Shown here: positions 3,850 to 48,640 of the stretch, one piece after another | How the letters are laid out: the number at the start of each line of letters is the position of its first letter | How positions within the stretch are numbered: the stretch's first letter is position 1 | Source: a phage | Sequence record: PZ445440.1 | DNA length: 64,000 bases | Reading direction: 5' to 3' (one strand) | Notes under the pieces: model-generated | Databases searched by the model: none | What the model saw: only the letters and a program-made list of their open reading frames with translations | What the model was told of the DNA's origin: nothing | Program-made: the position numbers and the translations under genes

Positions 3850-3961
3850 TAAGACGCCTGATGGGCTATTTCGGTAGCCCATATAAATATAACTATATCG
3901 TTTAAAATTAATTCTATGGGCATCTGGTTAATCCTAAGCCCATATTACTACAGAGGCTAAT

Positions 3962-4453
3962 ATGTTTGTAGATGACGTAACTCGTGCCTTCGAATCAGGT
4001 GATTTCGCTCGCCCTAACCTGTTCGAAGTAGAAATCTCTTATCTTGGGCAAAACTTTAGCTTCCAGTGTCGTGCTACGGCTCTTCCTGCTGCGATCGTTG
4101 AAAAGGTTCCTGTTTCTTATATGAACCGTAAAATTAACGTGGCTGGTGATCGTACATTCGATGATTGGACTATTACAGTAATGAACGATGATGCTCATAG
4201 CATTCGTCAGAAATTTGTTGATTGGCAAGGTATTGCAGCAGGACAAGGTAATGAAATTACCGGTGGTAAACCTGCTGAATATAAAAAGACTGCTATCGTT
4301 CGTCAATTTGCTCGTGATGCTAAAACGGTCACTAAAGAAGTTGAAATTGTCGGCTTGTGGCCTACTAACGTCGGTGAAGTATCTCTTGATTGGGATTCGA
4401 ATAACGAGATTGAAACGTTCGAAGTAACTCTTGCTCTTGATTGGTGGGAATAA
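3962..4453 (+). CDS. 19: Tail tube protein gp19
   Basis: 163 aa as in T4; late promoter TATAAATA at 3882-3889. Confidence 0.95.
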   Translation: MFVDDVTRAFESGDFARPNLFEVEISYLGQNFSFQCRATALPAAIVEKVPVSYMNRKINVAGDRTFDDWTITVMNDDAHSIRQKFVDWQGIAAGQGNEITGGKPAEYKKTAIVRQFARDAKTVTKEVEIVGLWPTNVGEVSLDWDSNNEIETFEVTLALDWWE

Positions 4454-33078: not shown

Positions 33079-33327
33079 TTATTTAAGGGTAATAACAAAA
33101 TGACGTACTGCTTTACGAGCTGCAGAAGCCAAAGGCTTAGCATATTTCAGTTCATCTTTTGCTTCCAGTTCAGAAGCCAAAGCTGCCTGTACCGGGTTCA
33201 GATGTTTGAAATAACGCAGGATTTCCAGTGCTTCGGCTTCAACATCAATTGACGCGCCGTAGTTTTCGTGACCGTTATTCCATGCGTTTCGTTGCAGTTC
33301 AAGAGCGTGTTGTAATTGTTTAATCAT
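33079..33327 (-). CDS. rIII: rIII lysis-inhibition accessory protein
   Basis: 82 aa, near-identical to recalled T4 rIII (MIKQLQHALELQRNAWNNGHENYG...). Confidence 0.9.
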   Translation of the reverse strand: MIKQLQHALELQRNAWNNGHENYGASIDVEAEALEILRYFKHLNPVQAALASELEAKDELKYAKPLASAARKAVRHFVITLK

Positions 33328-33451
33328 TTTAAATTCTCAATTCGAGATAATATTTAGTAGCCACGTTCGTCTGAATTTCACCTTCTTTCGACAAGTCTCT
33401 CAGTTGTAGGCTACCGCTTAGAAGAGTGTTCTCTTCATATAGTTATTTATA

Positions 33452-33784
33452 TCACTTATAAAGACACGGAATAGCTTTATAGTGGCATGTTACGAATTTC
33501 TGTTTAATTTCTTTAGGTTGTTTAAGTCCCAAAGCCACAAATGGATGTGGAACATTTCGAATTTGTCCAACTGGTAGTGGAGTCAAATCACCGACTTCAA
33601 CAAAACCTTCAGGAACATCAGGACCTACAGAATGAACTACACATAGTTCAGGAACTTCACCTTGAACACGTTTACCAATCACGAGTCCTGATTCGGTAAC
33701 TTCTTCATCACCTGCTTGAGCGGGTTCAGAAACCAGAATGACATATTCACCAACAGCACGAATTGGGAGTTGTACTTCAGACAT
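33452..33784 (-). CDS. 31: gp31 co-chaperonin (GroES analog)
   Basis: 110 aa, near-identical to recalled T4 gp31. Confidence 0.9.
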
Positions 33785-33814
33785 CTTATTTCCTTGTTGT
33801 TTGACGATAGATTA

Positions 33815-33839
33815 ATAATACCATACTATTCGTAAAGCA
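33815..33839 (-). promoter_or_regulatory. Middle promoter (MotA box TGCTTTA + TATTAT) for gene 31
   Basis: reverse complement ATGCTTTACGAATAGTATGGTATTAT. Confidence 0.5.
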
Positions 33840-33841
33840 TA

Positions 33842-34150
33842 TTACATAAGAAGCAAACGTTCTACCGGAGTACCGTCAACCGAAATTACTTTATCAAGGC
33901 GGAAAGAACGCCACTGACCTAACTTGGTATCGAATGCTCGAACTGATTCACGAGGTTCAGAACGAACTTCTGTTGCCGGATTGTTATTTTCATATTTGAC
34001 TTCAAGTTCATCGCGCGAAGCAAACATAGTGCGTACCTCACCGTTAGCCTTTTCAAATACAACACAATGAACGCCTACAGACAGAATAGTTTTAATACGT
34101 TCACGAAGAACCATAGTTTCTTGTTCAGTTAAAATCATATTATTCACCAC
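33842..34150 (-). CDS. Hypothetical protein, 102 aa
   Basis: ORF between cd and 31; overlaps cd end. Confidence 0.5.
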   Translation of the reverse strand: MVNNMILTEQETMVLRERIKTILSVGVHCVVFEKANGEVRTMFASRDELEVKYENNNPATEVRSEPRESVRAFDTKLGQWRSFRLDKVISVDGTPVERLLLM

Positions 34151-34721
34151 AAAAGTTTCGGATTTGTTCCCAATTCAGAGAACGAAGATTATTACGAGAG
34201 TACTGAATTACTTCAATACCAGCTTGTTTAAGAATGTCTGTCCAATTTTCAGGAGACCGGTCATATAATTCTGCATATACAACCTTTTTAATGCCTGACT
34301 GTGTGATAGCTTTAGTGCAATCAGGACACGGAGAAAGCGTAGTATATAACGTAGCACCTTCAATAGAATTACCTTTACGAGCAGCAAACAAAATTGCATT
34401 CAATTCCGCATGGATTTCGTTATTAGCAGACCATGCACTATGAGCGGCCCGATGTTCTTTAGCCAAAACAAAATTATCTGCCCGTCCAAATGCTGTAGTG
34501 CCTTCTTTATGCCCAGCAACGATGACCGGGCTTGGTTTATTCTTCAACCAACCTTGTTCGGTAGCATGGTCACAACAGTTTGTACCACCTGAAGGAGACC
34601 CATTATAACCCGTAGAGATAATGCGCCCATCTTTTTCAATGACGGCACCAACTTTCCATGAACAACATTTTGATTCTTGAGAAATCAAATAAGCAATTTG
34701 AAGATATGTGCTAGCTTTCAT
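34140..34721 (-). CDS. cd: dCMP deaminase
   Basis: 193 aa; zinc-binding HAE and PCxxC motifs; matches T4 Cd. Confidence 0.9.
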   Translation of the reverse strand: MKASTYLQIAYLISQESKCCSWKVGAVIEKDGRIISTGYNGSPSGGTNCCDHATEQGWLKNKPSPVIVAGHKEGTTAFGRADNFVLAKEHRAAHSAWSANNEIHAELNAILFAARKGNSIEGATLYTTLSPCPDCTKAITQSGIKKVVYAELYDRSPENWTDILKQAGIEVIQYSRNNLRSLNWEQIRNFCGE

Positions 34722-35713
34722 TATTGAACCTTATTAATATAAGTTAACAGCTCTTTAGTTTGTTCCCAACTGATGCACGCATCGGTAACGGAAACGCCAT
34801 AGGACATATTATCAGAAATTTTTTGATTTCCTTCATGTAGGAATGATTCTATCATAATTCCTTTGACCAAATCATTAGCTGCTAAATTTTTACCAATACC
34901 AATTTGATTGCTATAATGCCCATCAGCGTTTGCATGGCTACAGTCAACCATTACATAATGATTCAGACCTACTGCCCTTGCTTTGTTAGAAGCTTCTTGA
35001 ATATCAGAAGAATGATAGTTCGGGCCGTTGGTCCCGCCACGCAATACGATATGCGTATTCTGATTACCTTCAGCTTCAACAATGCCTACAGTACCATCGA
35101 CGTCCATACCCATATACCGATGAGGCCAGGCGGCACTATACATCGCGTCTGTAGCTACTTTAATAGAACCATTAGTTGCGTTCTTGAAGCCTACGCACAT
35201 CGGTAGACCTGAAGCAATTTCACGATGTGTCTGACTTTCAGTCGTACGGGCGCCAATAGCAACCCATGAGAAAATACCAGAAAGATACTTAATCGTGAAT
35301 GGGTCTAATACTTCAGTTGCTAATGGAAGTCCCATACGTAGAAGTTTACGACACAATGTTCGTGCAACTATAAGTCCGTGGTTCATATCAAAACTTCCGT
35401 CAAGATATGGATCATTTACAAGACCTTTCCAACCTACGGTAGTTCGAGGCTTTTCAAAATAAACGCGCATCACTAACAGAACATTAGGAAGACGAGTTTG
35501 AAGTTCAGCCAGACGTTTGCCGTATTCAACAGCAGCAATAGGGTCATGAATTGAACAAGGACCTACAACAATAAGTTTGCGTGGGTCTTCACCGTTCATA
35601 ATCGAATTAACTTGTTCGCGATGAGAAGCCACTTGTGAGGCGTAAGCTTCCGACAAAGGAATAATCTCGGCCAGTTCTTTTGGAGAAATAAGTTTTCCGA
35701 CGACAGGTAACAT
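34721..35713 (-). CDS. 3-deoxy-D-arabino-heptulosonate-7-phosphate (DAHP) synthase, class I (AroF/AroG-like)
   Basis: 330 aa; motifs GPCSIHD, MRVYFEKPRTTVGWKGL, GARTTESQTHRE, VGFKN, VDCSHAN, EGNQ, YGVSVTDACISWE; stop overlaps cd start (TAATG). Confidence 0.85.
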   Translation of the reverse strand: MLPVVGKLISPKELAEIIPLSEAYASQVASHREQVNSIMNGEDPRKLIVVGPCSIHDPIAAVEYGKRLAELQTRLPNVLLVMRVYFEKPRTTVGWKGLVNDPYLDGSFDMNHGLIVARTLCRKLLRMGLPLATEVLDPFTIKYLSGIFSWVAIGARTTESQTHREIASGLPMCVGFKNATNGSIKVATDAMYSAAWPHRYMGMDVDGTVGIVEAEGNQNTHIVLRGGTNGPNYHSSDIQEASNKARAVGLNHYVMVDCSHANADGHYSNQIGIGKNLAANDLVKGIMIESFLHEGNQKISDNMSYGVSVTDACISWEQTKELLTYINKVQ

Positions 35714-35833
35714 AACAATCCTTAGGAGATATAAACAGATTCTGATTCAACAATACCTTTAACCGGATTAGACAGGCTAAGTTGGTAGTGCTCAGATTTA
35801 TGACCATTCTCGATAGTAATGAGATAGCTCTCA

Positions 35834-36070
35834 TTATAGTGTTCCATATACTCGAGTTGCTTCAACAAGACCATCACTGCCTAATTTAAGATTAGTAATT
35901 TGGTCACCATCTTTAGGATTAACGATTATGAGAAAAGAACGTGGAGATTCTTGAATAACTCGTAATGTTGCATCTTGGAAACGTTCAGACACTTTATTGA
36001 TGAGTGCTTGAGCAAATTCTTTTACTTTAATCTGAAATTCGTGTACTGTAATTGGGTTTTCACTTAGCAT
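35834..36070 (-). CDS. Hypothetical protein, 78 aa, first gene after early promoter upstream of DAHP synthase
   Basis: ORF plus early promoter at 36099-36128. Confidence 0.5.
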   Translation of the reverse strand: MLSENPITVHEFQIKVKEFAQALINKVSERFQDATLRVIQESPRSFLIIVNPKDGDQITNLKLGSDGLVEATRVYGTL

Positions 36071-36098
36071 TTCTATTTCCTCATTTGTTGGTAGAGTT

Positions 36099-36128
36099 AT
36101 AGTATCACAACTCTACGGTGTTGTAAAC
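36099..36128 (-). promoter_or_regulatory. T4-type early promoter
   Basis: reverse complement GTTTACAACACCGTAGAGTTGTGATACTAT. Confidence 0.55.
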
Positions 36129-36404
36129 TTAAATTGCAAAACATTTAATTTCTTGTGAATCGAAATCAACTTCGCACTGAATTACTAGTTCAGCATCAAG
36201 TCCAAACACAACAATCACATGAGCCGAGCTGGGCAACAGTGTAACAGACACAGAATCCACTTGGTCAGGCACCAACGTATTCAAAACGTAGAGTAGTTCA
36301 GAGTGGATCTTAAGCTCGGTAGCCGTGTCCAGCTTATCAAAGAAATGATTTGCGATAATCTGACTAAAAACGACCTTTACAATTTCAGAATATTTAGGGA
36401 ACAT
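36129..36404 (-). CDS. Hypothetical protein, 91 aa
   Basis: ORF in pseT-cd interval. Confidence 0.45.
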   Translation of the reverse strand: MFPKYSEIVKVVFSQIIANHFFDKLDTATELKIHSELLYVLNTLVPDQVDSVSVTLLPSSAHVIVVFGLDAELVIQCEVDFDSQEIKCFAI

Positions 36405-36411
36405 AATTACC

Positions 36412-36636
36412 TCAGTGTACAGTATTTACTTTAACACGAACAACAAATTGCTCGGTCGGTTCGCCTACAGGAACAAACTCTACATGATATTCGCCTTTGT
36501 AACGAGTATTCAGGTCGTTACGAATTTCGGTAAGCTTGTTGATTAATGTAGAACTCATATTAAGTCCCACTAGTTTACGAAGCATTTTGTATGCTTCATC
36601 TTCGATTTCATGATGTTTATCGCACATAGTTTTCAT
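36412..36636 (-). CDS. Hypothetical protein, 74 aa
   Basis: ORF in pseT-cd interval. Confidence 0.45.
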   Translation of the reverse strand: MKTMCDKHHEIEDEAYKMLRKLVGLNMSSTLINKLTEIRNDLNTRYKGEYHVEFVPVGEPTEQFVVRVKVNTVH

Positions 36637-36807
36637 TTAACCATTCAATTGCCTGGTCGACGTTATCAAATATACCACCGTCCAAACGTTCTTCATACTC
36701 ATAGTCCAGCACATCAATACCGAACTGTCCATTTACTAAAGGCCAGGCTACAAACAAATATTCTTTATGCTGTTCGATGGCCTCAATCACTTCATATAAT
36801 CGTTTCA

Positions 36808-36808
<1 letters not shown>
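36617..36808 (-). CDS. Hypothetical protein, 63 aa
   Basis: ORF coupled to pseT stop. Confidence 0.4.
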
Positions 36809-37894
<1,086 letters not shown>

Positions 37895-37895
<1 letters not shown>

Positions 37896-38194
37896 TATTT
37901 TATTCCTAAGAAAGTTTCAAGAATACGAATGTTATGCTCGCGCCGGTCTTTATTAATTTCAGCAACGTTTTTATTAATTGACGTACTTCTAACGTTTGAA
38001 GAAATAAATTTAATCATATGACTTTTGAGTTGTTGCAAATCCAACCCTTTTTCTTTAGCAGCTTTACGAAGAGCTTTACCTGCTTCATCTAGTGCCTTTG
38101 CTGCATCTTTGTCATAATTGCCAAGTGACATTCCACGGCAGATATCAATATACTCATCAGACCGTTTGATGTAATTCTCTAGTAATGTTTTCAT
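37895..38194 (-). CDS. Hypothetical protein, 99 aa
   Basis: ORF following early promoter 38223-38252. Confidence 0.45.
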
Positions 38195-38222
38195 TTAGAT
38201 TTCCTCAATTATCCATAGGAGC

Positions 38223-38252
38223 ATTATACTCTGCTCCTGAGAGTTTGTAAAC
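38223..38252 (-). promoter_or_regulatory. T4-type early promoter with consensus TATAAT -10
   Basis: reverse complement GTTTACAAACTCTCAGGAGCAGAGTATAAT. Confidence 0.6.
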
Positions 38253-38476
38253 TATTTTACTAAAGATTCAATATACTCGTGAAGAGCTTTAGTCGCTACT
38301 GCCCACTTATTCTGATATTCATTTTTCAGATTAGCACGAGACTGAACTAACAAGCGGTCATTAGTCGGAGGCAAAGATTCTAATCGTTGAATCTGACGAC
38401 CATAAATCATAGCCGCCATTTCAGAGTCATAGATAAGTCCTTTAAGGTATTCATGCTGTTCTTTAGTCATTGACAT
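38252..38476 (-). CDS. Hypothetical protein, 74 aa
   Basis: ORF downstream of spanin pair. Confidence 0.45.
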   Translation of the reverse strand: MSMTKEQHEYLKGLIYDSEMAAMIYGRQIQRLESLPPTNDRLLVQSRANLKNEYQNKWAVATKALHEYIESLVK

Positions 38477-38757
38477 TTTTCCTCTTTTAAACCACTACGA
38501 TAATAACATAACATAGTCTTCTGGTCATGTACATATCTTTTTACGTCGTTTAACCAGATACGAAATTCTTGAGAGTCTTCAAACGGCATTCCAACCCACG
38601 GATTACCATCAATAACCTTTACTTGCCATTTCTGGTTATATTCAACAATAGATTCAGGCCATTGCGGATGTAAAGTTTCTTTAGGGCTTAAGGGCACATC
38701 CTGGGCACATCCAGCCAAAATGCCAATAGATAATACAACTGCGGTTAATTTAATCAT
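38467..38757 (-). CDS. Outer-membrane spanin (o-spanin, Rz1-like lipoprotein)
   Basis: signal peptide with lipobox LAGC; directly follows i-spanin-like gene; position of T4 pseT.2. Confidence 0.6.
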   Translation of the reverse strand: MIKLTAVVLSIGILAGCAQDVPLSPKETLHPQWPESIVEYNQKWQVKVIDGNPWVGMPFEDSQEFRIWLNDVKRYVHDQKTMLCYYRSGLKEEKCQ

Positions 38758-39110
38758 TCTGAGAGCTTCCTGAGGTCTTCTGCAAAGGAATCGAAGGACC
38801 TGTTGATTTGTTTTTCGACCAATCCTGGCTTACTTGCCACCACGTTCTTCTTCTTCGAATCCTGACGGAGCTTTTCATTTTCGGCCTTAAGTTGGTCAAC
38901 TAAAACACGGTTCTTATAAGTCATTTCTTCGATTGACTGATATTGAACCTTGAAGTCGTCTAATACTTTAGCATTGTTTTTAGCGGTCTCTTTGACAGAA
39001 GCTAATTCAGTATTCAACGAATCAACTTTGTTGTTTAAGACAACTATTGTTACCGTAGAAACTAGAGCAAAAGCTGCTACTATAGCATAAATCGGATTTA
39101 CTTTAAGCAT
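38754..39110 (-). CDS. Inner-membrane spanin (i-spanin, Rz-like)
   Basis: N-terminal transmembrane segment then charged coiled-coil; position of T4 pseT.3. Confidence 0.6.
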   Translation of the reverse strand: MLKVNPIYAIVAAFALVSTVTIVVLNNKVDSLNTELASVKETAKNNAKVLDDFKVQYQSIEEMTYKNRVLVDQLKAENEKLRQDSKKKNVVASKPGLVEKQINRSFDSFAEDLRKLSE

Positions 39111-39598
39111 GTTTTAATAATCTCAATGATTTCATCTCGGGATAATCCATTGATAAGAACGGTTTTCAAACCATCACACTGGATTTTGTACGATTCAAAC
39201 AATACACACAACTCTTCTGCTGTATGATACGGGCTTGAAATTCCGAGGCGGTTGAATTTGTCGGTAAGAGGGTCGCAAATAATGTAGAATTTTATACCTG
39301 CGATATGTACGTTTGGTTGACTAATATTAATGAACACATTAGCGTCGTATTTAGTCAAATTGTTTTGAAGAAATTCTACCATGGCATTAACTGCTTCCGG
39401 CATTGCTTCACGTTTCTCTTCAGCGTATCGGGTGGAATACTCTTTTTGTTTTACTTTCTTTTTAAGATTTTTGGCTAGTGTAACACGTAGGTCAGTAAGA
39501 TAACCAACTGGACGTCCTTTCTTAAAGACTCGGATTCCGTCAGTTGTGTCTCCAAAAGCGGTTACGACCATATCGTTAGTAATCAATTGCATATTCAT
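39098..39598 (-). CDS. alc: Alc, inhibitor of host transcription on cytosine-containing DNA
   Basis: 166 aa, syntenic with T4 alc. Confidence 0.8.
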   Translation of the reverse strand: MNMQLITNDMVVTAFGDTTDGIRVFKKGRPVGYLTDLRVTLAKNLKKKVKQKEYSTRYAEEKREAMPEAVNAMVEFLQNNLTKYDANVFINISQPNVHIAGIKFYIICDPLTDKFNRLGISSPYHTAEELCVLFESYKIQCDGLKTVLINGLSRDEIIEIIKTCLK

Positions 39599-39628
39599 AA
39601 TTTTCTCCTCGGGTTGTTGTTAAAAGCC

Positions 39629-39658
39629 ATAGTAACACCTTCCTTGGTGTTTGTAAAC
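39629..39658 (-). promoter_or_regulatory. T4-type early promoter upstream of alc
   Basis: reverse complement GTTTACAAACACCAAGGAAGGTGTTACTAT. Confidence 0.55.
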
Positions 39659-39660
39659 CA

Positions 39661-40794
<1,134 letters not shown>

Positions 40795-40811
40795 TCAGTT
40801 AGTTTTTTTAA

Positions 40812-40841
40812 ATTGTACCACAATCCTTGTGGTGTGTAAAC
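40812..40841 (-). promoter_or_regulatory. T4-type early promoter upstream of rnlA
   Basis: reverse complement GTTTACACACCACAAGGATTGTGGTACAAT. Confidence 0.55.
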
Positions 40842-41251
40842 TACTTTTTCTTATGTTGGATATTCCAAGGCGGGTTGAACTTTTTGATAAAAAGTGGTTC
40901 TTCAAGGTCCATTGTTGCGATGGTCATTGAACCAAGTTCGTTGGTGACTGAAAGGTCAAAACATTGGCGGGCCCAGAATTCAACCTTTTTGCCTTGCATT
41001 AAGGCATCCAAAATCATAAGTGATTTTCTTGAATCTGAAGTCTGGTCTTTTCGATTTATGGCTGTTCGATAATAGTTAATGCGTTTCTTTAAATTCTTGG
41101 TTTTACCAATATACACAAGTTCGTCATCTATAGCAATAGCGTATATGACATTTTTCTTATTAGGGACATCGACTGTTTTAATTGTTGCATCTTCTAATAG
41201 CTCCAATTCTGTATATTTAATAAAGGAATATTCGGCGGCAATATCTTTCAT
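40841..41251 (-). CDS. denA: Endonuclease II (DenA)
   Basis: 136 aa, same as T4 DenA; GIY-YIG-like YIGKT segment. Confidence 0.9.
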   Translation of the reverse strand: MKDIAAEYSFIKYTELELLEDATIKTVDVPNKKNVIYAIAIDDELVYIGKTKNLKKRINYYRTAINRKDQTSDSRKSLMILDALMQGKKVEFWARQCFDLSVTNELGSMTIATMDLEEPLFIKKFNPPWNIQHKKK

Positions 41252-41259
41252 AATAAAGT

Positions 41260-41273
41260 GGGACCGAAGTCCC
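41260..41273 (-). terminator. Hairpin GGGACUUCGGUCCC between nrdB and denA
   Basis: GC stem with UUCG loop. Confidence 0.5.
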
Positions 41274-41277
41274 GTCC

Positions 41278-42456
41278 TTAGAAATATTTTTTGTATGAAT
41301 TGATTACATTTTGGTCTACATCATTATCAATTTGTGCGACAAGATAAGAACTGATTTCAACTTCCTGAGGAGCTGCTTGAACTAAATCGGAATTCAGATA
41401 TTCACGAATCCATGGAATAGGATGGCGAGTTGATACGTCTTTAAGTGGACAAGGTAGACCACAACTACGCATACGAGATACAGTAAGGTAATCCACAAAT
41501 TCGCTTAGAATTTTAACATTTAGCCCTGGCAGAGCACCATCTTTAAACAAGTGTTCAGCCCATTCTTTTTCTTGAGCATTAACTTCCATAAAGATATCAA
41601 CGGCTTCTTTCTCACATTCTTTTGTGATCTGAACCCACTCATCACCATCTTCACCGTCTTGTAAAGCACGAATAATATATTGAGTGCCTTTAAGGTGAAG
41701 CTGTTCATCACGTGCGATGAACTTCATAATCTTCGCATTACCTTCCATAATTTCCATATTTTTATGGAAGTTGAAAGTACAAGCAAAAGATACATAAAAA
41801 CGAATAGCTTCCAAGGCGTTAATAACATGCAGGCAGAGATAAAGAGATTTCATTAGCTCACGCTTCCAATATGTCTCATGCTCAATAGCATCTTCAATAA
41901 CGTCTTCGTCTGCATTAATTTCTTTTTGGTATTCGATATCAGCTTTAGCATTTTCCCAATAACGAGTTTTAACTAAGACATCGTCGTAATAACGTCCGAT
42001 AGATTCAGCACGTTTCATAATAGCTTCGTCTAATACAATTTCATCAAATACCTTCGATGGATCGGTATAAAGATTTCGCATGATATGAGTATATGAACGG
42101 GAGTGAATAGTTTCACTGAAAGTCCATGTAGCAACCCATGTATCTAATGAAGGGTCTGAAAGCAATGACATAAGTACCGCAGATGGTGCCCTGCCTTGGA
42201 TAGAATCTAATAATGATTGATACTTAAGGTTGTTGGTAAAGATATTCTGTTGGAACTGAGGAAGCTTATTGAACTGGGCTGAATCCAGCATCAGGTTTAC
42301 TTCTTCTGGGCGCCAAAAGAACGAGAGTTGCTTTTCGATAAGCTCTTCAAAAACTTTATGACGTTGGATATCGTAACGTGCAAGACCAAGACCAGAACCA
42401 AAGAACATCGGTTCATTCAAAACATCGACTTGTTGTGTATTAAAAACTGTACTCAT
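41278..42456 (-). CDS. nrdB: Ribonucleotide reductase small subunit NrdB (intronless)
   Basis: 392 aa continuous ORF; di-iron and tyrosyl radical motifs. Confidence 0.95.
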   Translation of the reverse strand: MSTVFNTQQVDVLNEPMFFGSGLGLARYDIQRHKVFEELIEKQLSFFWRPEEVNLMLDSAQFNKLPQFQQNIFTNNLKYQSLLDSIQGRAPSAVLMSLLSDPSLDTWVATWTFSETIHSRSYTHIMRNLYTDPSKVFDEIVLDEAIMKRAESIGRYYDDVLVKTRYWENAKADIEYQKEINADEDVIEDAIEHETYWKRELMKSLYLCLHVINALEAIRFYVSFACTFNFHKNMEIMEGNAKIMKFIARDEQLHLKGTQYIIRALQDGEDGDEWVQITKECEKEAVDIFMEVNAQEKEWAEHLFKDGALPGLNVKILSEFVDYLTVSRMRSCGLPCPLKDVSTRHPIPWIREYLNSDLVQAAPQEVEISSYLVAQIDNDVDQNVINSYKKYF

Positions 42457-42511
42457 TATATTTTCTCACTTAGTTATTAACTCATCCATGAGTAAATTAT
42501 AATCAAAAGAC

Positions 42512-44767
42512 TTAAAGCTTACAAGCAGAACAATCTTCAGCTTTAGGTGTTTCTAATTCATAGTCATCTGTACCTGACCCATCACGGGTGTTATGATAGT
42601 AGAGGTTTTTTCCGCCAAAGTACCAAAAGTAAAGCAGATCGTCAAGCATTACTGACATTGGCACTTTACCTTTCTCAAATACTGCAGGGTCATAGTAAGT
42701 ATTAGCAGAAGCAGATTGGCACACCCATTTCAACATGATAGCAACTTGGGTCAAATAAGGTTTATTACCTTTCTTAGCAAGTTTCCACGCATAGTCGTAA
42801 AGACTCATGTTATGTTCGATATTAGGAACAACCTGTCGGAAGTTGCCTTCTTTAGATTCTTTAATACTTACTGGACCGCGTGGGGGCTCAATCCCGTTTG
42901 TAGAGTTTGATACTTGACTGCTTGACTCACAAGGCATGAGTGCAGACAACGTTGAGTTACGAATTCCATGTTCTTTGAGTTCAGCTCGAAGTTCTTCCCA
43001 GTCGCAGACGTAGTTCGGGGCTGCGATTTGGTCAATCTTTTTATTGTACCAGTCGATAGGTAATTCGCCTCTAGACCATTTAGTGTCTGAATAATACTCG
43101 CAAGGTCCTTTTTCTTTGGCGAGTTTGATTGAAGCTTTGATAAGGCCATATTGCAATCTCTCAAACAATTCATGAGTCAAATCGTTAGCGTCTTCATATG
43201 AAGCAAAGTTAGAAGCTAACCATGCAGCATAGTTCGTCACACCGACACCGAGATTTCGACGCTTTTTAGCTTTTAAAGCTTCTGGAACCGGATAATCTTG
43301 ATAGTCTAACAGGTTATCAAGTGCACGTACTTGTACTTCAGCAAGTTCATTAATTTTATCTTGGTCTTGCCAATCAAATTTATCTAATACAAAAGCAGAT
43401 AATGTGCATAAACCGATTTCAGCATCAGGACCATTCACATCATTAGTTGGAATAGCGATTTCACAACATAAGTTACTCTGACGAATTGGAGCTTTTTCAC
43501 GAATAAATGGAGTGTAGTTATTCGTGTTATCAACAAACTGTGGATAAATTCGAGCAGTACCAGAACGTTCAGTCATGAACAATTCAAAGAGTTCTAGTGC
43601 TTTGATTCTTTTCTTTCTGATTGTTGGGTCTTTTTCAGCTTTCTCATAAAGCTCACGGAATTTATCTTGATCTTCAAAAAACGAGTAGTATAATTCGCCT
43701 GACATTTCGTGAGGGCTAAATAAAGTAATATAATCATTTTTACCAAGGCGTTCCATCATAAGGTCATTAATTTGAATTCCGTAGTCCATATGTCGAATAC
43801 GGTTTTCATCCACGCCTTTGTTATTTTTCAGAACTAATAGGTTCTCTACTTCTAAGTGCCACATCGGATAATACGCTGTAGCAGCACCACCACGAATACC
43901 ACCTTGAGAACAAGATTTTACTGCAGTTTGGAAATGTTTCCAGAATGGAATAACACCTGTATGTCGAACTTCACCCATACCGATCTTAGAACCTTCTGCA
44001 CGAAGCATGCCAACGTTGATACCGATACCAGCTCGTTTAGAAATATATTCAATAATTGACGCCGAAGTTTTGTTAATAGATTTTAACGAATCACCTGCTT
44101 CAATAACTACACAACTAGAGAACTGGCGAGTTGGAGTACGAGCACCTGCCATAATTGGGGTTGGCAATGAAACTTGATGAGTAGAAACAGCATCATAAAA
44201 ACGAATAATATGTTTCAAACGGTCATGAGTTTCGTCTTGATGTAAGGCCATACCAATAGCCATGATAGCAAACTGGGGAGTTTCATAAATCTTACCAGTT
44301 GTTTTATCTTTAACCAGGTATTTTTCTTTAAGCTGCATAGCACCAGCATAAGTCAGGTCAAAATCTCGCTCATGTTTAATCCGAGAATCAAGATAAATGA
44401 TTTCTTCTGCAGAATATCTAGACAACAACTCAGGATCGTATTTGCCTTCATTAACACAGTAAGAAATATGGTCGATAAAAGCAGGCGGTTCAAACTGCCC
44501 ATATACATCTTTACGAAGTGCAAACATTAATCCTTTAGCAGCAACATATTGATAGTCAGGTTCTTCGACAGAAATCGAGTTAGCTGCAACTTTAATACAA
44601 ATCTTCTGAATATCTTTGGTGCTCATCCCATCGACAAGATGGGTCTTAATTTCTTCGTACAATTCATATGGGTCGATTTGTGTTCCTTCACATTGCCAAG
44701 TTAAGACTTGAATAATTTTCTGTGCATCAAAATTTTGGGATACACCACTGCTCTTAGTTACTTGCAT
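42512..44767 (-). CDS. nrdA: Ribonucleotide reductase large subunit NrdA
   Basis: 751 aa; class Ia RNR motifs. Confidence 0.95.
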   Translation of the reverse strand: MQVTKSSGVSQNFDAQKIIQVLTWQCEGTQIDPYELYEEIKTHLVDGMSTKDIQKICIKVAANSISVEEPDYQYVAAKGLMFALRKDVYGQFEPPAFIDHISYCVNEGKYDPELLSRYSAEEIIYLDSRIKHERDFDLTYAGAMQLKEKYLVKDKTTGKIYETPQFAIMAIGMALHQDETHDRLKHIIRFYDAVSTHQVSLPTPIMAGARTPTRQFSSCVVIEAGDSLKSINKTSASIIEYISKRAGIGINVGMLRAEGSKIGMGEVRHTGVIPFWKHFQTAVKSCSQGGIRGGAATAYYPMWHLEVENLLVLKNNKGVDENRIRHMDYGIQINDLMMERLGKNDYITLFSPHEMSGELYYSFFEDQDKFRELYEKAEKDPTIRKKRIKALELFELFMTERSGTARIYPQFVDNTNNYTPFIREKAPIRQSNLCCEIAIPTNDVNGPDAEIGLCTLSAFVLDKFDWQDQDKINELAEVQVRALDNLLDYQDYPVPEALKAKKRRNLGVGVTNYAAWLASNFASYEDANDLTHELFERLQYGLIKASIKLAKEKGPCEYYSDTKWSRGELPIDWYNKKIDQIAAPNYVCDWEELRAELKEHGIRNSTLSALMPCESSSQVSNSTNGIEPPRGPVSIKESKEGNFRQVVPNIEHNMSLYDYAWKLAKKGNKPYLTQVAIMLKWVCQSASANTYYDPAVFEKGKVPMSVMLDDLLYFWYFGGKNLYYHNTRDGSGTDDYELETPKAEDCSACKL

Positions 44768-44854
44768 ATATTCCTCAGTATAGGTTGATAGACATTACTC
44801 CAAACGGGATAGTATTTATCCCGTTAATTTATTATACACTTTTAAACTGAAGCG

Positions 44855-45109
44855 TTAATTATTCTTAGCAATAATTTCTTTGTATTCTTTAGGAGTCAAG
44901 ACTGTGATATCGAAATAAACCATTGGTTCTTTTTCCATACCGTAACCACCACAAAATTCACGATATTCATAAATTCGTTCATGTGAATAACAAACGAATC
45001 GTTCACCTTTAACTGTGATTTCACTATTTGGTGAAGGGATATCTAGTTCGGTAGGATTTTTCATTTCAAAAATTGTGGTGCCATATGAATTAATAAAACG
45101 TAAAATCAT
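44855..45109 (-). CDS. Hypothetical protein, 84 aa
   Basis: ORF between td and nrdA. Confidence 0.5.
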   Translation of the reverse strand: MILRFINSYGTTIFEMKNPTELDIPSPNSEITVKGERFVCYSHERIYEYREFCGGYGMEKEPMVYFDITVLTPKEYKEIIAKNN

Positions 45110-45110
45110 T

Positions 45111-45971
45111 TTATACCGCCATTTTAGCTTTGATAACTGGATGTGATTCGTAATTTTTAAGAACGAAATCAGAATGTGTCATTGTTCCGGTAACCCAGTC
45201 CATTTGGATTTTTGTAGGCCAATTCTCAAAATTACTAGGCCAATTAATTTCAAGAGAACATAACTCTTTAGGTTCACGACGAAGAACTTCTTTGCATTGT
45301 TCTACATGATTGCTGTAGATATGCGTGTTGCCGCCCGAGAACACTAAATCACCCGGGATAAGATTACACATCTTCGCTACAATATGCGTCAAGGCAGCGT
45401 ACGAGGCAATGTTGAATGGCAGGCCCAAGAAAACATCTACACTGCGTTGATACCATTGTAAATCAAGATGCCCATTACGCACATTAAATTGATAGAACAT
45501 ATGACAAGGAGGAAGAGCCATTTGGTCAATTTCGGCTGGGTTCCATGCAGAAACTATTTGACGACGATCATTAGGAAGAGCTTTAATACGGTCGATAGTT
45601 TTGACCAATTGGTCTACACCACCAAAATCACGCCATTGCTTACCATAAATAGGACCAAGTTCACCACTATGATATCCAAGGTCTTTTGCCTGATTTTCAT
45701 AGTTGTCGTCCCAAATAGTTTTACCTTGAATAAGACTACCATGAGTACGAATACGCAAATCATTAACATTGGTAGAACCAGACATGAACCACAGTAACTC
45801 GGCAATACAAGCTTTCCATGCTAATTTCTTAGTTGTTACCGCAGGGAATCCTTTAGTCAGATCCCAACGTAATTTAGTTCCGAACAGGGCAATAGTGCCG
45901 GTACCTGTACGGTCGTCTGTTTCATAACCATTTTCTAGGATATCATTAATCAGGTATTGGTATTGTTTCAT
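45111..45971 (-). CDS. td: Thymidylate synthase (intronless)
   Basis: 286 aa continuous ORF, same length as spliced T4 TS; catalytic Cys region LPPCH. Confidence 0.95.
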   Translation of the reverse strand: MKQYQYLINDILENGYETDDRTGTGTIALFGTKLRWDLTKGFPAVTTKKLAWKACIAELLWFMSGSTNVNDLRIRTHGSLIQGKTIWDDNYENQAKDLGYHSGELGPIYGKQWRDFGGVDQLVKTIDRIKALPNDRRQIVSAWNPAEIDQMALPPCHMFYQFNVRNGHLDLQWYQRSVDVFLGLPFNIASYAALTHIVAKMCNLIPGDLVFSGGNTHIYSNHVEQCKEVLRREPKELCSLEINWPSNFENWPTKIQMDWVTGTMTHSDFVLKNYESHPVIKAKMAV

Positions 45972-46555
45972 TTATATACGCTCTCAGTAATTTCGGTGAG
46001 TTCATCGATTCTGTAGTAATGAGATTCTACCATAGAACGTTGAAGCATAATATCCTGGACGAAATCTTTATCAAGTTGAACATCTGAATTAACACGACAT
46101 TTCTTAATGATTTTAGTCATCACAATTTCATCAGCATAAGGCAATGCTTGTTTAAGTAGAGCAGGACCGCCGATAACAGATACATCAACATGTTCAGTAG
46201 AAAGTTTAAACGGTACGTCGGTTGAAGGGCTAAACAAGTTAATTTCACCACCAGTCACCAAGGTAATAAATTCAGATTGGGTGATATAGAACCGTGCAAG
46301 TTCGTTGGTTTTAGTCCTAGGCAGTTTTCTGGCCATATCAGTGACAACCACATGAGTACGATCTGGGAGTAGACGAGGTAATGATGCAAATGTATTAGCA
46401 CCCATAACCATTACAGTGTTTTTAGTGCGAGCAACAAAGTTACTCATATCTTGTTTGATATGCTTCCATGGAAGTCCATCACCTAATCCAAAAGCATATT
46501 CCAGTTTATCATCAACTGTTTTAGATGGTGCGCATGCGAATACTAATTTAAGCAT
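45968..46555 (-). CDS. frd: Dihydrofolate reductase
   Basis: 195 aa from MLKLVFACAPSK; GLGDGLPW motif; track ORF carries a 28-aa upstream extension. Confidence 0.85.
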   Translation of the reverse strand: MLKLVFACAPSKTVDDKLEYAFGLGDGLPWKHIKQDMSNFVARTKNTVMVMGANTFASLPRLLPDRTHVVVTDMARKLPRTKTNELARFYITQSEFITLVTGGEINLFSPSTDVPFKLSTEHVDVSVIGGPALLKQALPYADEIVMTKIIKKCRVNSDVQLDKDFVQDIMLQRSMVESHYYRIDELTEITESVYK

Positions 46556-46796
46556 TTTTAAGTCCTTTAATAACTTTTTGGATTTGTGATTTAGAAGAAA
46601 CCAAATCAGTCTGGATTTGACAACCATCGGTTGGGTCAAATATTATAACACAAACGCGAGGTTTTGTTGTGTATCGCCCGGACAAATCAAATGCGTCACC
46701 AATGAATTCGGCCAAATCCGGATGGTCTAAATTAACTGAAGTATAAACTTCATATCCGACATCAGCGCCTTGAGAGTATTCAACAACAACATTCAT
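46548..46796 (-). CDS. Hypothetical protein, 82 aa
   Basis: ORF upstream of frd, 8-nt overlap. Confidence 0.45.
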   Translation of the reverse strand: MNVVVEYSQGADVGYEVYTSVNLDHPDLAEFIGDAFDLSGRYTTKPRVCVIIFDPTDGCQIQTDLVSSKSQIQKVIKGLKNA

Positions 46797-46798
46797 AA

Positions 46799-47062
46799 TT
46801 ATTTCCTCAGATTTTTCTTAACAACTTTCCAATCAGCTTTAAACGATTCAACATCAGAGTGGTGAATCCAGAATCCTGCACTTTCACCATCTTCGTAGAG
46901 TGGACATCCATCACATTCTTCGTTCCAACCCATTTCACGTAAAGCTTCTTCAGCTTGTTCAAGGAGTTCAGCGTCTTTACCAGCGATGTTGAAGTACCAT
47001 TTACCTCTAACTTCAGAATCTTTGATGCTCTGGCGTTGCAATCTCATTTTATTCTCCTTCAC
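46799..47062 (-). CDS. Hypothetical protein, 87 aa
   Basis: ORF. Confidence 0.45.
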   Translation of the reverse strand: MKENKMRLQRQSIKDSEVRGKWYFNIAGKDAELLEQAEEALREMGWNEECDGCPLYEDGESAGFWIHHSDVESFKADWKVVKKNLRK

Positions 47063-47108
47063 TTTTATTTGATAGGGCTACTATAACATAGCCCTATCTT
47101 GTTGTACA

Positions 47109-47501
47109 CTACTTTTTAAAAGTTTTTTGCAAAAGTTTGATGATTTCGTCGACGTTGGTTTCATCTACGATACAATGGATTTTTGTTACACCTAAAGTTA
47201 TACCTTCGTTAGTAGGTTGAGGCTTTACTAAATCTACCTCAGTAAAGTATTTGAACTCGTCAGGATAAATCTCAAAATAAGTTTCAATTTCACCACCGGC
47301 AGAACATACAGTACCATCTTCCATAGTTACACTTACTACGTTTGACGTATCGCTATCATAATCAGGTTCCATTCCGTTTACAACAAAACTGGGCCCGTGG
47401 AGTTCAATCAATTTTAACATCTTAGCGTTATTGTGTGGTGCTTCTTGAACAAAGTCGTCTTTAAATAAAGGGTTAATGATATAAGATTTTCCAATTTCCA
47501 T
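47109..47501 (-). CDS. Hypothetical protein, 130 aa
   Basis: ORF following early promoter 47530-47558. Confidence 0.5.
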   Translation of the reverse strand: MEIGKSYIINPLFKDDFVQEAPHNNAKMLKLIELHGPSFVVNGMEPDYDSDTSNVVSVTMEDGTVCSAGGEIETYFEIYPDEFKYFTEVDLVKPQPTNEGITLGVTKIHCIVDETNVDEIIKLLQKTFKK

Positions 47502-47529
47502 TTTGATTTCCTCATGTTGTTGATAGGTT

Positions 47530-47558
47530 CTATACTAACACATCTAGGGAAGAAGTAA
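47530..47558 (-). promoter_or_regulatory. T4-type early promoter
   Basis: reverse complement GTTTACTTCTTCCCTAGATGTGTTAGTAT. Confidence 0.55.
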
Positions 47559-47583
47559 ACAACTTTTTCGACAATTTACAGAT

Positions 47584-47601
47584 ACTCAAAAGGGAGACCG
47601 A
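47584..47601 (-). terminator. Hairpin GGGAGACUUCGGUCUCCC downstream of gene 32 (third copy of the 18-mer)
   Basis: identical to 9856-9873 and 32581-32598. Confidence 0.65.
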
Positions 47602-47615
47602 AGTCTCCCAATTTA

Positions 47616-48518
47616 TTATAGACCAGCTAACAGGTCATCGAGGTCGCCATCATCAGAGGATGAGGTAGAGCTCATGAAGTCATCTTCAGTTTTTGCAGAA
47701 CTAAAGGCTTCCATGTCTTTATCAAAATCGTCAAGGTCAGAAGCAACTTTATCTGCAACAGAAGCTGCTGCGGCTGCTGCACCACCAAGAGCGGCAGTAC
47801 CAAGAACCTTAGCGAAAGATTCATTTAATTTTTCAAAGGATTTGAACTGGTCTTTAGCCGTCAAAGTAGTAAGGTCTACCATCTGGTCATATAGTTCTTT
47901 CTGGAATGCTTCGTCATTAATACGAGGAATTTCAGATTGACCCAAGAATTTAGATTCGTCATAGTTGCTAAAACCGGAAACCTGCTTAGCTTTCAGAACG
48001 AAGTTAGCACCTTCAAATGGGCAAGTAACATCAACTGGAGTTTCACCCATTTCGGTATCAACTGCAATCATTGCATTGATTTTGTCCCAAATCTTTTTAC
48101 CGAAACGATATTTAAATACTTTACCTTCGTTATCTGGAGCTTGAGGGTCTTTAACAACCAGAATATTGGCCCAATAAGAGGTTTTACGTTTCAGTTGAGA
48201 ATATTCAGCTTTGTTGGTATTGTACAGGTCATTTTTACTAATGTACTGACATACAGGACAAGAGTCGTAATCACCATGTGTAGAAGAGCAATTTTCAATA
48301 TACCATTTACCATTTTTCTTGAAACCGTGGTTAACAAGAATTGCAAATGGTAGTGCATCATCAGTTTTTGCTGGCAAGAAACGAATTACCGCTTGACCAT
48401 TACCGGATGCATCTAGCTTCAGCTTCCATTCGCCTTTATCTTCTGAAGAGAAACCTTTGTTACCATTCAGTTTAGCCATTTGAGCAGCGAGGTCAGCAGT
48501 AGATTTACGTTTAAACAT
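47616..48518 (-). CDS. 32: Single-stranded DNA-binding protein gp32
   Basis: 300 aa; essentially matches recalled T4 gp32, including acidic C-terminus. Confidence 0.95.
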
Positions 48519-48640
48519 GGATTATTACCTTTTATTTAGATTATTTAATTTATTTACTTACAGTTGGTTGCTACGACACTTATACCTCGTAGCTGGTATG
48601 ATTTATTTATAAAGTAATTTTAACACACAAGAAATAAAGC
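48519..48640 (-). promoter_or_regulatory. Gene 32 mRNA leader / translational operator region
   Basis: AU-rich tract before the ATG, hairpin GCUACGA...UCGUAGC (about 48570-48595), late promoter TATAAATA at 48604-48611. Confidence 0.55.

Follow-up and report, generated by a model that had tools for sequence, protein, structure and literature searches.

A type I-alpha DAHP synthase with a rebuilt, putatively deregulated feedback-inhibitor site, carried beside dCMP deaminase by the Mosigvirus phage Bas46

The window, by which we mean the whole 64,000-nucleotide stretch of phage DNA that was analysed (sequence record PZ445440.1), carries on its minus strand a gene for a DAHP synthase (DAHPS) that lies between cd.2 upstream and cd, the gene for dCMP deaminase, downstream. 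Positions 33400-37800 were 100% identical to Escherichia phage ChristianSchoenbein (Bas46, Mosigvirus), whose bas46_0048 encodes a protein 100% identical to the window ORF, and phage Shf125875 has the same gene at the same locus. The features of the locus were as follows.

34721..35713, minus strand: coding sequence of the DAHP synthase, 330 residues, start codon ATG (open reading frame, Pfam/NCBIfam, phrog_5045, 6AGM, structure model and GenBank annotation)
35719..35723, minus strand: Shine-Dalgarno AAGGA, 5 nt before the DAHPS ATG and overlapping the stop of the cd.2-remnant ORF
34140..34721, minus strand: cd (dCMP deaminase, Pfam PF00383), of Kanagawa/Marfa type, in translational overlap with DAHPS
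35722..35847, minus strand: the 41-residue ORF bas46_0049, which fills a 120-nt "spacer" and is apparently what is left of a foreign cd.2 of Kanagawa/Marfa type (its 3' half)
35834..36070, minus strand: resident cd.2 (DUF7320), the upstream neighbour, of T4-like type
36099..36127, minus strand: candidate sigma-70-like promoter motif TTTACA-17-TACTAT, the nearest upstream of DAHPS
37091..37115, minus strand: candidate MotA-box-like middle-promoter motif inside pseT, a possible start for read-through
34721..35833, no strand assigned: 1,113-bp segment absent from RB69-type Mosigvirus (alignment with mar005P1 and T4)

The translation of the ORF contained every motif of the class I DAHP synthase signature that an earlier, sequence-only reading of this DNA had quoted (GPCSIHD, KPRTTVGWKG, GARTTESQTHRE, VGFKN, VDCSHAN, EGNQ and YGVSVTDACISWE). 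Profile searches, which that reading had suggested, matched DAHP synthase models far above their cut-offs: Pfam PF00793 at 252 bits (E = 5e-75; curated cut-off 25.5 bits), the NCBIfam aroFGH equivalog TIGR00034 at 428 bits (cut-off 173) and NF009395 at 455 bits (cut-off 343). The ORF scored below the cut-offs of the isozyme-specific NCBIfam models for AroH (386 bits; cut-off 463) and AroG (363 bits; cut-off 568), no KDO8PS model was among its NCBIfam matches at E <= 1e-3, and it has the DAHPS-type KPRT motif. The PHROGs profile phrog_5045 matched over the full length (E = 3e-182), and the AroF structure 6AGM matched at E = 5e-105. Identity to E. coli AroF, AroG and AroH was 51, 47 and 43%, respectively, in agreement with the divergence from these paralogs that had been claimed.

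The four metal ligands that the sequence-only reading had listed were all present, AroG C61/H268/E302/D326 corresponding to C53/H260/E289/D311 in the window, and were invariant in full-length homologues. Also invariant were the PEP and erythrose-4-phosphate (E4P) ligands R92, K97, R99 (KPRT motif), R165, K186 and R234 (AroG numbering), such that ten catalytic or ligand residues were kept in 123/123 full-length homologues. The AlphaFold model (pLDDT 91, pTM 0.91) had a (beta/alpha)8 barrel with a beta6a/6b hairpin insertion formed by extra strands at 198-203 and 209-214, and superposed on solved type I-alpha DAHP synthases of N. meningitidis, E. coli and F. tularensis with TM scores of 0.94-0.96 and an rmsd of about 1.5 A. 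The ORF is a type I-alpha DAHP synthase in which the catalytic residues are all in place, and the predicted enzyme is probably active.

Phage DAHP synthase is already known: it is annotated in GenBank and catalogued in PHROGs, and the literature has treated it as an auxiliary metabolic gene (AMG). The novelty that the sequence-only reading had implied for the gene did not hold. A homologue was found in 213 phage records among those searched, many of them annotated as DAHP synthase, although the GenBank product name of bas46_0048 is "putative aldolase". Proteins 100% identical to the window ORF occur in Shf125875, phiC120, O157 typing phage 6 and others, and an intact ORF stands at this locus in five other genera as well as in 140 Mosigvirus-type records. 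A few of the database matches labelled as phage are really bacterial contigs (Salmonella AGRM01000002, Acinetobacter MD-2021a). PHROGs places phrog_5045 in the category "moron, auxiliary metabolic gene and host takeover", and the paper on the Kanagawavirus KLB31 proposed DAHP synthase as an AMG for the supply of aromatic amino acids. The phiC120 paper also mentions the gene, and brings in lipopolysaccharide because PF00793 also covers KDO8P synthases. We found no enzymatic, genetic or expression experiments on any phage DAHP synthase in the open-access literature, an absence that is weakly established. What is new here, from sequence comparison, is the rebuilt feedback-inhibitor site of the phage enzyme; we also add its membership of a single phage clade in a fixed slot and its apparent phage-to-phage arrival in Mosigvirus together with cd.

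As the sequence-only reading had noted, DAHPS and cd overlap in the sequence TAATG, here on the minus strand: a single base belongs both to the DAHPS stop codon TAA (34721-34723) and to the ATG of cd (34719-34721). The assignment of the gene to a nucleotide-metabolism operon was also supported: DAHPS stands in a minus-strand block with cd, pseT, nrdAB, td and frd, and no late-promoter motif was found on that strand across 33452-48603. Between the sigma-70-like motif at 36099 and DAHPS there was no promoter-like or terminator-like site on the minus strand, no terminator-like site was found on that strand in 33300-38300, and neither a sigma-70 scan nor the MotA-box pattern located a promoter for DAHPS in the spacer. 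The sigma-70-like motifs in the region were no more numerous than in shuffled sequence, and the promoter calls are motif matches; the MotA-box pattern, expected 6.5 times in the window, occurred 18 times. We rejected a structured RNA in the spacer, as the fold was not significant (z = -0.93); all that stood out there was an 8-bp hairpin with perfect pairing, located at the cd.2 stop. Based on this arrangement, DAHPS would most likely be transcribed within the predicted prereplicative pseT-cd unit; its own Shine-Dalgarno would serve its translation, and that of cd would be coupled to the DAHPS stop. No other shikimate-pathway gene is annotated in the genome, and thus any benefit of DAHPS to the phage would depend on the downstream enzymes of the host.

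The cd.2-DAHPS-(cd.1 or homing endonuclease)-cd slot is shared by Mosigvirus, Kanagawavirus, Marfavirus, Winklervirus, Gualtarvirus, Bragavirus and a metagenomic T4-like contig, and two deep-branching members of the family (P0020 and P0022) likewise sit on T4-like contigs. The window ORF is a member of the six-genus family known as phrog_5045 or, in GenBank, "phospho-2-dehydro-3-deoxyheptonate aldolase", and occupies the same slot. Whereas the Mosigvirus gene is preceded by the cd.2 remnant and overlaps cd by TAATG, the other genera have a gap of 0-43 nt upstream, and some have a cd.1 homologue or a homing endonuclease between DAHPS and cd. In T4 the slot holds the unrelated cd.1 and the locus gave no DAHPS match, consistent with the gene having been described as absent from the T4 set.

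All trees were built by neighbour-joining. In the phylogeny, another analysis that the sequence-only reading had suggested, the phage-type enzymes formed a single clade (bootstrap 200/200) that grouped with AroF-like enzymes, not with AroG or AroH. The clade fell outside the enterobacterial AroF, with a sister-group bootstrap below 0.2, and its members were at most 54% identical to any bacterial protein. A recent capture from the E. coli host was rejected because of this monophyly and low identity, together with the weak sister-group bootstrap; one ancient capture of an AroF-like enzyme is the best explanation of the clade. Across genera, the identity of DAHPS to that of the window tracks the identity of cd. 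The gene is under purifying selection, with a dN/dS of 0.14-0.33 in between-genus pairs and 0.145 in the only unsaturated pair (dS 0.71); within Mosigvirus the dS of 0.01-0.03 leaves dN/dS without power.

The short ORF bas46_0049 gave an indication of how the gene reached Mosigvirus. It matched positions 44-76 of the 77 in phrog_1504, the cd.2 family (E = 1.8e-5), and was identical at 20/31 residues to residues 45-81 of the CIP9 cd.2 (z = 11.5), compared to 10/31 for the phage's own cd.2 (z = 2.2). The 140 records with this ORF are those that carry the Mosigvirus-type DAHPS. An alternative, that an insertion had left part of a cd start behind the cd.2 stop (TAATGAGAGCTA...), was rejected because the whole spacer is better explained as the 3' half of a foreign cd.2. 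In the cd tree Mosigvirus joined Kanagawavirus and Marfavirus (300/300), discordant with the pseT and gp31 trees, and cd was probably transferred together with DAHPS. These comparisons suggest that DAHPS came to Mosigvirus from another phage, with cd, that bas46_0049 is the scar left by the transferred module, and that the RB69-type genomes lost DAHPS later.

In the RB69-type Mosigvirus the cd.2 stop overlaps the cd start, and this DAHPS-less junction was intact in 11 records. The 1,113-bp segment that these genomes lack carries ATAATGA(G/A)AGC repeats at both ends, owing to which its boundaries are ambiguous by about 10 nt, and the repeat may have mediated the RB69-type deletion. The gene is missing from T4 and other genera and, closer to Bas46, from RB69 and six other Mosigvirus-type phages, and is therefore dispensable. 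The relatives without it include moha and JK42. Of the earlier proposal that DAHPS is a co-evolved operon member and not a recent host pickup, the second half stands on the monophyly and low identity; the first half does not, since the DAHPS-cd module appears to have entered Mosigvirus from another phage, leaving a scar, and the gene can be dispensed with.

We then compared the phage enzymes with bacterial DAHP synthases along the alignment, and located the changes in the window at two places.

35273..35293, minus strand: codons I141-K142-Y-L-S-G146-I147, the remodelled core of the inhibitor site (AroG P150, Q151, D155, L156; from alignment, with AroG roles from PMC9529685)
35201..35203, minus strand: codon P171, in place of the inhibitor-contacting serine (AroG S180/AroF S181; from alignment)

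Only nine of 325 alignment columns were conserved but different between phage and bacterial enzymes, and six of these nine coincided with inhibitor-site positions, of which 11 are published (Fisher p = 2.4e-8). None of the nine was a catalytic residue. The phage-clade substitutions were, in AroG numbering, P150I, Q151K (K/R), D155G, L175I, S180P and F209Y. In addition, only 8-12 residues precede the column of AroG P19 in the phage enzymes, compared to 16-31 in the bacterial ones. The combination of a short N-terminus, Q151K/R and S180P was found in 26 phage-type sequences and in 0/98 bacterial-type sequences, and the phage DAHP synthase does not have the canonical inhibitor pocket with a full-length N-terminal segment. 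The published AroG variants P150L, S180F, L175D and F209A/S are feedback-resistant, Q151/Q152 and S180/S181 touch the bound inhibitor, and D155 gives a stabilising salt bridge (PMC9529685). Since six of the nine switches lie in the inhibitor site and the N-terminus is shortened, the phage enzyme is probably not inhibited by aromatic amino acids.

A simple loss of regulation would predict drift, whereas among the phage-type sequences, from genera 55-77% identical overall, conservation was higher at the inhibitor site (0.96) than elsewhere in the protein (0.74), and so the site may keep a function, either in responding to a new effector or in the structure of the dimer interface. The short N-terminus is itself conserved in sequence (M-L/R-P-x-V) in four genera. 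The phage enzyme also keeps D146 and the beta6a/6b hairpin, and has the Tyr-type state, glycine, at the AroG-211 position, from which some residual binding of Tyr may persist.

The closest characterised likeness is to the Tyr-sensitive E. coli AroF (6AGM/6AGL), with which the phage enzyme shares its 51% identity over the full length, the (beta/alpha)8 fold, the Cys-His-Glu-Asp metal site, the PEP/E4P ligands and the glycine at the Tyr-type specificity position. It differs from AroF in being about nine residues shorter at the N-terminus and shorter also at the C-terminus, in two shorter loops (AroG ~283-290 and ~313-316), in carrying P151I, Q152K, D156G, S181P and F to Y (AroF numbering), and in being encoded by a phage, outside the TyrR-regulated promoter context. 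The altered positions and N-terminus are those of engineered feedback-resistant enzymes (AroG P150L, S180F, L175D and F209A, and AroF N-terminal mutants); in contrast to these, the phage changes are natural, clade-wide and combined, with at least six positions and a truncation, and the resistance of the phage enzyme is predicted. Like other phage AMGs at rate-limiting steps, such as the T4-like nucleotide-metabolism genes, DAHPS is a single enzyme at a committed, regulated step in a lytic phage. Shikimate-pathway genes are reported from ocean viromes, as cited in the KLB31 paper; the case here differs in that the gene is in an enterobacterial T4-like phage, not a marine virus, with a predicted role.

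Based on these data, we moderately favour the view that Bas46 carries, as an AMG, a competent type I-alpha DAHP synthase with a rebuilt and putatively deregulated feedback site. The enzyme could instead be an ordinary AroF-type isozyme, still regulated by Tyr, that replaces host enzyme lost to host shut-off. Its nearest solved and E. coli relative is the Tyr-sensitive AroF, it retains D146 and the hairpin, and N. meningitidis S213G entries in the PDB, one titled "without Tyr bound", fit a role for the residue at AroG-211 in setting Tyr specificity. Against this, every phage-type sequence has Lys (K/R) and Pro in place of the residues that hold the main chain of the inhibitor (Q151/152 and S180/181). 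Changes are also present at P150, L175 and F209, each a position at which one substitution in AroG is enough to abolish inhibition; the D155 salt bridge is gone, and the enzyme lacks the N-terminal segment that precedes the first strand. We consider continued Tyr regulation unlikely. We give a similarly low probability to a pocket re-targeted to another small molecule (a nucleotide, a folate or a chorismate-pathway intermediate) or to a phage or host protein. Such a change would account for the near-invariance of the switched residues across divergent genera, their absence from the bacterial-type sequences and the conserved short N-terminus, and DAHPS travels with cd, a nucleotide-metabolism enzyme. 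However, the sequence suggests no ligand, the same residues lie at the tight-dimer interface, where their conservation may be purely structural, and the link to cd may be mere adjacency.

A change of substrate, with PEP condensed to another sugar phosphate for arabinosyl-hydroxymethylcytosine DNA modification or a sugar pathway (compare KDO8P synthase and arabinose-5-P), seemed to us very improbable. The inclusion of KDO8P synthases in PF00793 and the annotation of a putative UDP-arabinose pathway and a phosphosugar isomerase in the same genome had prompted the idea of a link to an arabinosyl-hmC pathway, which we judged unlikely: the NCBIfam matches were to DAHP synthase models only, including one at equivalog level, there is no variation in the KPRT(T) motif that binds E4P or in any E4P/PEP ligand, 0/9 clade-specific switches are catalytic, and RB69 has the same locus without DAHPS. 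We know of no shared arabinose modification in the other DAHPS-carrying genera. That the gene is a decaying passenger, or host DNA or an assembly artefact with no function in the phage, might be thought from its dispensability in some close relatives and from the few bacterial contigs among the matches. This is effectively refuted by the intact ORF found at one locus in five further genera as well as in 140 Mosigvirus-type records, by the purifying selection and invariant catalytic residues, and by the lack of any bacterial protein more than 54% identical.

Returning to the favoured view of a competent, putatively deregulated enzyme, the phage DAHP synthase would condense PEP and erythrose-4-phosphate; its gene has remained between cd.2 and cd in many T4-like genera, and would move between phages with cd. 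Tyr, Phe and Trp would no longer inhibit it, and carbon flow into shikimate and chorismate could be sustained while the host isozymes are feedback-inhibited and no longer resynthesised. The end-product from which the phage gains may be the aromatic amino acids, or else cofactors made from chorismate, for example folate/pABA or quinones. The more specific proposal, of a natural T4-like phage DAHP synthase that is deregulated or under a different signal, whose clade-defining changes are confined to the allosteric pocket and which travels as a unit with dCMP deaminase, is one we put forward tentatively, at somewhat less than an even chance.

As a discovery the gene is ordinary, and its value is modest, as a testable case. 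It concerns one enzyme at a committed, feedback-controlled step that is kept by lytic enterobacterial phages in at least six genera, and whose sequence differences from its cellular counterparts cluster at the regulatory site. Natural presence/absence pairs in Mosigvirus (Bas46 vs RB69 and moha) and a tractable BASEL phage ease experiments. If the insensitivity is true, strain engineering would gain a naturally feedback-resistant DAHP synthase that is ready for use, and the enzyme would be a clean example of a virus overriding host metabolic feedback. If it is deregulated or answers to a different signal, it may sustain folate/pABA for the synthesis of dTMP and hydroxymethyl-dCMP, or aromatic amino acids, despite the shutdown of the host isozymes by their end-products, and could respond to a new, infection-specific effector.

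34721..35713, minus strand: DAHPS, the 330-aa ORF with an ATG start, from translation
34140-34721, minus strand: cd, dCMP deaminase, the next gene after DAHPS (Pfam PF00383, E = 2e-26)

The sequence-only reading had identified the DAHPS ORF as a DAHP synthase from a set of motifs, every one of which is present in the 330-residue translation, and family-profile searches upheld that identity. The protein matched Pfam DAHP_synth_1 (E = 5e-75) and scored above the curated NCBIfam thresholds for both the TIGR00034 "aroFGH" equivalog (428 bits, cut-off 173) and NF009395 (455 bits, cut-off 343); it was below threshold in the AroG- and AroH-specific NCBIfam models. Its closest solved structure was the E. 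coli Tyr-sensitive AroF (6AGM, E = 5e-105). A Shine-Dalgarno sequence, AAGGA, lies 5 nt ahead of the start codon, and the TAA stop codon at 34721-34723 has one base in common with the cd ATG (34719-34721), producing the TAATG overlap previously described.

Aligning the protein with the three E. coli isozymes AroG, AroF, and AroH showed that the metal ligands C61, H268, E302, and D326 (AroG numbering; C53, H260, E289, and D311 in the window protein) are invariant, so that all four ligands claimed from AroG were found. The PEP/E4P ligands R92, K97, R99, R165, K186, and R234 were also invariant, and both sets were kept in all 123 full-length homologues examined. An AlphaFold2 model built from a 36-sequence alignment (mean pLDDT 91, pTM 0.91) had a single very low-confidence stretch, the KPRTTV loop at residues 89-94, and matched solved type I-alpha DAHP synthases with TM 0.94-0.96 and an rmsd of about 1.5 Å. 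Between genera dN/dS was 0.14-0.33, including 0.145 for CIP9 and PEi20, the only pair with unsaturated synonymous divergence (dS 0.71); the Mosigvirus alleles were too alike for a within-genus estimate. Together, these data support an active-looking DAHP synthase, and from the conserved residues and the model we infer that it would be catalytically active.

The gene and its proposed role as an auxiliary metabolic gene (AMG) are already known, and the claim of novelty fails, as DAHPS had been deposited, annotated, and catalogued as an AMG, and its role hypothesized in print. Positions 33400-37800 are 100% identical to Escherichia phage ChristianSchoenbein (Bas46 in the BASEL collection; Straboviridae, Tevenvirinae, Mosigvirus phapec2), whose record lists the ORF as bas46_0048, "putative aldolase". 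PHROGs v4 assigned the protein to phrog_5045 (E = 3e-182; "moron, auxiliary metabolic gene and host takeover"). By tblastn with the protein, homologues were identified in 213 of 50,697 phage records, 140 of them at least 95% identical, and a few of the weakest matches were bacterial contigs or unrelated gut-phage contigs. These rows of the search (H37-H40) include the bacterial contigs Salmonella AGRM01000002 and Acinetobacter "phage" MD-2021a, as well as human-gut "Bacteriophage sp." contigs whose homologues are just 35-52% identical and could be independent acquisitions. A DAHP synthetase domain was remarked in an identical protein of phiC120 (PMC8022965), and a Kanagawavirus homologue was proposed in a 2025 study of Klebsiella phages to be an AMG feeding aromatic amino-acid synthesis (PMC11845039), the same hypothesis as that of the sequence-only reading. 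Our limited search of the open-access literature found no experimental work on a phage DAHPS.

In T4 the unrelated cd.1 lies between cd.2 and cd, and there was no DAHPS match in the T4 locus, confirming that the gene is absent from T4 at this position. It is likewise absent from the cd.2-cd locus of Dhaka-, Gapriver-, Karam-, Teguna-, and Jiaodavirus. The same slot, after a cd.2-like ORF and before cd, holds DAHPS in Mosigvirus, Kanagawavirus, Marfavirus, Winklervirus, Gualtarvirus, Bragavirus, and a 29-kb metagenomic T4-like contig; a T4 cd.1 homologue separates it from cd in Winkler- and Bragavirus, and a homing endonuclease does so in Gualtarvirus. Neighbor joining of 76 sequences placed all 25 phage-type proteins in one monophyletic clade (200/200 bootstraps), which sided with AroF-like proteins, not AroG or AroH, with support below 0.2 for any bacterial sister. 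No bacterial protein exceeded 54% identity to the window DAHPS, and the nearest bacterial-type match sits in an ordinary bacterial context, beside metH and nifU. The monophyly of the phage clade and the low bacterial identity indicate one old capture maintained in T4-like phages, and the view that DAHPS is not a recent host pickup was upheld.

A comparison of 124 homologues (26 phage-type and 98 bacterial-type) revealed a difference at the feedback-inhibitor site. A short N-terminus, Q151 to K/R, and S180 to P occurred together in exactly 26/26 phage-type and 0/98 bacterial-type sequences, with 8-12 residues before the AroG-P19 column in the former versus 16-31. In AroF, N-terminal changes (N8K, deletion of Ile11) make the enzyme insensitive to Tyr. 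An unbiased scan for columns conserved in both groups yet carrying different residues yielded just nine of 325: A73G, P150I, Q151K, D155G, L156I, M/L175I, S180P, F209Y, and T223A. Of these, six are among the 11 inhibitor-site positions of PMC9529685 (Fisher one-sided p = 2.4e-8). According to that study, AroG P150L confers complete resistance to Phe inhibition and S180F, L175D, and F209A/S are likewise feedback-resistant, while Q151/Q152 and S180/S181 bind the inhibitor main chain and D155 makes a stabilizing salt bridge. Based on the switched residues and the short N-terminus, the phage enzyme is predicted not to be inhibited by aromatic amino acids. The remodeled site is better conserved than the remaining protein (0.96 versus 0.74), which simple loss of function would not predict; the pocket might be held in an active state, have a part in the dimer interface, or bind something new.

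Three observations point to DAHPS having moved between phages, and one of them concerns the following feature.

35722-35847, minus strand: bas46_0049, a 41-aa ORF in the 120-nt "spacer" upstream of DAHPS, the remnant 3' half of a foreign cd.2

A 1,113-bp segment that lies between cd.2 and cd in the window is missing from RB69-type genomes, where the stop codon of cd.2 instead overlaps the start of cd; this junction is intact in just 11 records (RB69 (2), mar005P1 (5), JK42, moha, ECO111 5-P, and JK36), versus 140 with the gene. The annotated "hypothetical protein" bas46_0049 matches positions 44-76 of 77 of the cd.2 family phrog_1504, and is closer to cd.2 of Kanagawavirus CIP9, in its C-terminal half (20/31 identical, z = 11.5), and to Marfavirus cd.2 (18/30, z = 8.6) than to the phage's own cd.2 (merely 10/31, z = 2.2). 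Its stop is 8 nt before the DAHPS ATG, and intact Kanagawavirus cd.2 ends 9 nt before DAHPS. It has its own PHROG (phrog_15876) and is 95-100% conserved in 138 of 140 Mosigvirus-type DAHPS-carrying records. It is a leftover of a Kanagawa/Marfa-type cd.2 and probably not an independent gene. In addition, Mosigvirus cd, from genomes with and without DAHPS, grouped with Kanagawa- and Marfavirus cd (300/300 bootstraps), whereas Mosigvirus pseT (36808-37707) grouped with Gapriver-, Tequatro-, and Dhakavirus (support 0.90) and gp31 (gene 31, 33452-33784) with T4 (support 1.0). This discordance implies replacement of a cd-containing module in the ancestor of Mosigvirus. The simplest reading of these neighbor-joining trees and the one scar is that a [cd.2 3' fragment]-DAHPS-cd module would have entered that ancestor from a Kanagawa/Marfa-like phage, and that RB69-type genomes would then have deleted 1,113 bp, perhaps between the terminal ATAATGA(G/A)AGC repeats. 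This reading corrects the description of DAHPS as a co-evolved operon member: phages have carried the gene for a long time, yet within the present lineage it is a mobile, dispensable module.

Homing endonuclease genes occur in or beside the pseT-cd locus of several genera, and in Providencia phage PSTRCR_121 DAHPS and cd have such a gene directly between them.

L011 (PSTRCR_121 stretch) 3490-4056: homing endonuclease gene
L011 296-1012: homing endonuclease gene
L023 (SP18 stretch) 1616-2341: homing endonuclease gene

Endonuclease-driven co-conversion could move the DAHPS-cd module between phages. Elsewhere in the locus, cd.3 (DUF7355, 36129-36404) is just 66-67% identical to cd.3 of Shf125875 and mar005P1, although the genes around it are each 93-100% identical, and it appears to be another small mosaic patch. 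Shigella phage JK45 (NC_054940), whose taxonomy line reads Tequatrovirus, has the Mosigvirus-type cd.2/remnant/DAHPS/cd arrangement at 98.5% protein identity, probably because the record is misclassified or the genome is mosaic.

By annotation, DAHPS lies within a long minus-strand block with pseT, cd, nrdA/B, td, and frd. There was no late-promoter motif TATAAATA on the DAHPS strand in 33452-48603, no terminator-like site on the minus strand in 33300-38300, and no promoter-like motif in the spacer upstream of DAHPS; candidate sigma-70-like and MotA-box motifs occur upstream of the gene. This motif-level evidence would fit prereplicative read-through transcription. Across the whole window, MotA-box-like middle-promoter patterns (18 versus 6.5 expected) were nearly all on the minus strand and late-promoter motifs (18 versus 7.6 expected) mostly on the plus strand among structural genes, an enrichment as expected for a T4-like genome. 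A hairpin was also identified.

35817-35836, minus strand: perfect 8-bp hairpin UAAUGAGA-GCUA-UCUCAUUA, beginning precisely at the stop codon of cd.2

Its sequence is the same in six Mosigvirus genomes, and the overall structure of the 141-nt region was not significant (z = -0.93).

No other shikimate, chorismate, or aromatic-amino-acid genes are annotated across the 169-kb genome; the phage supplies just the committed, regulated step, with host enzymes downstream. The product that matters could be aromatic amino acids, to support a large burst of phage protein synthesis, or cofactors made from chorismate, such as the folate used to make dTMP and hydroxymethyl-dCMP. The joint transfer with cd hints at the cofactor option but may reflect adjacency alone. 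Outside the window, at 72-100 kb of MZ501056 (L027), the annotation of the same phage lists a putative hmC-arabinosyltransferase along with two enzymes of UDP-arabinose biosynthesis, a phosphatase, and a phosphosugar isomerase. A link between the arabinose genes and the DAHPS/KDO8PS family was judged unlikely, since RB69 shares this cd.2-cd locus but lacks DAHPS.

The DAHPS locus is a tidy case of module exchange at a plastic T4-like locus, and the clade-wide, natural rebuilding of an allosteric site implies deregulation or re-targeting of the enzyme, a sharp and cheaply testable prediction.
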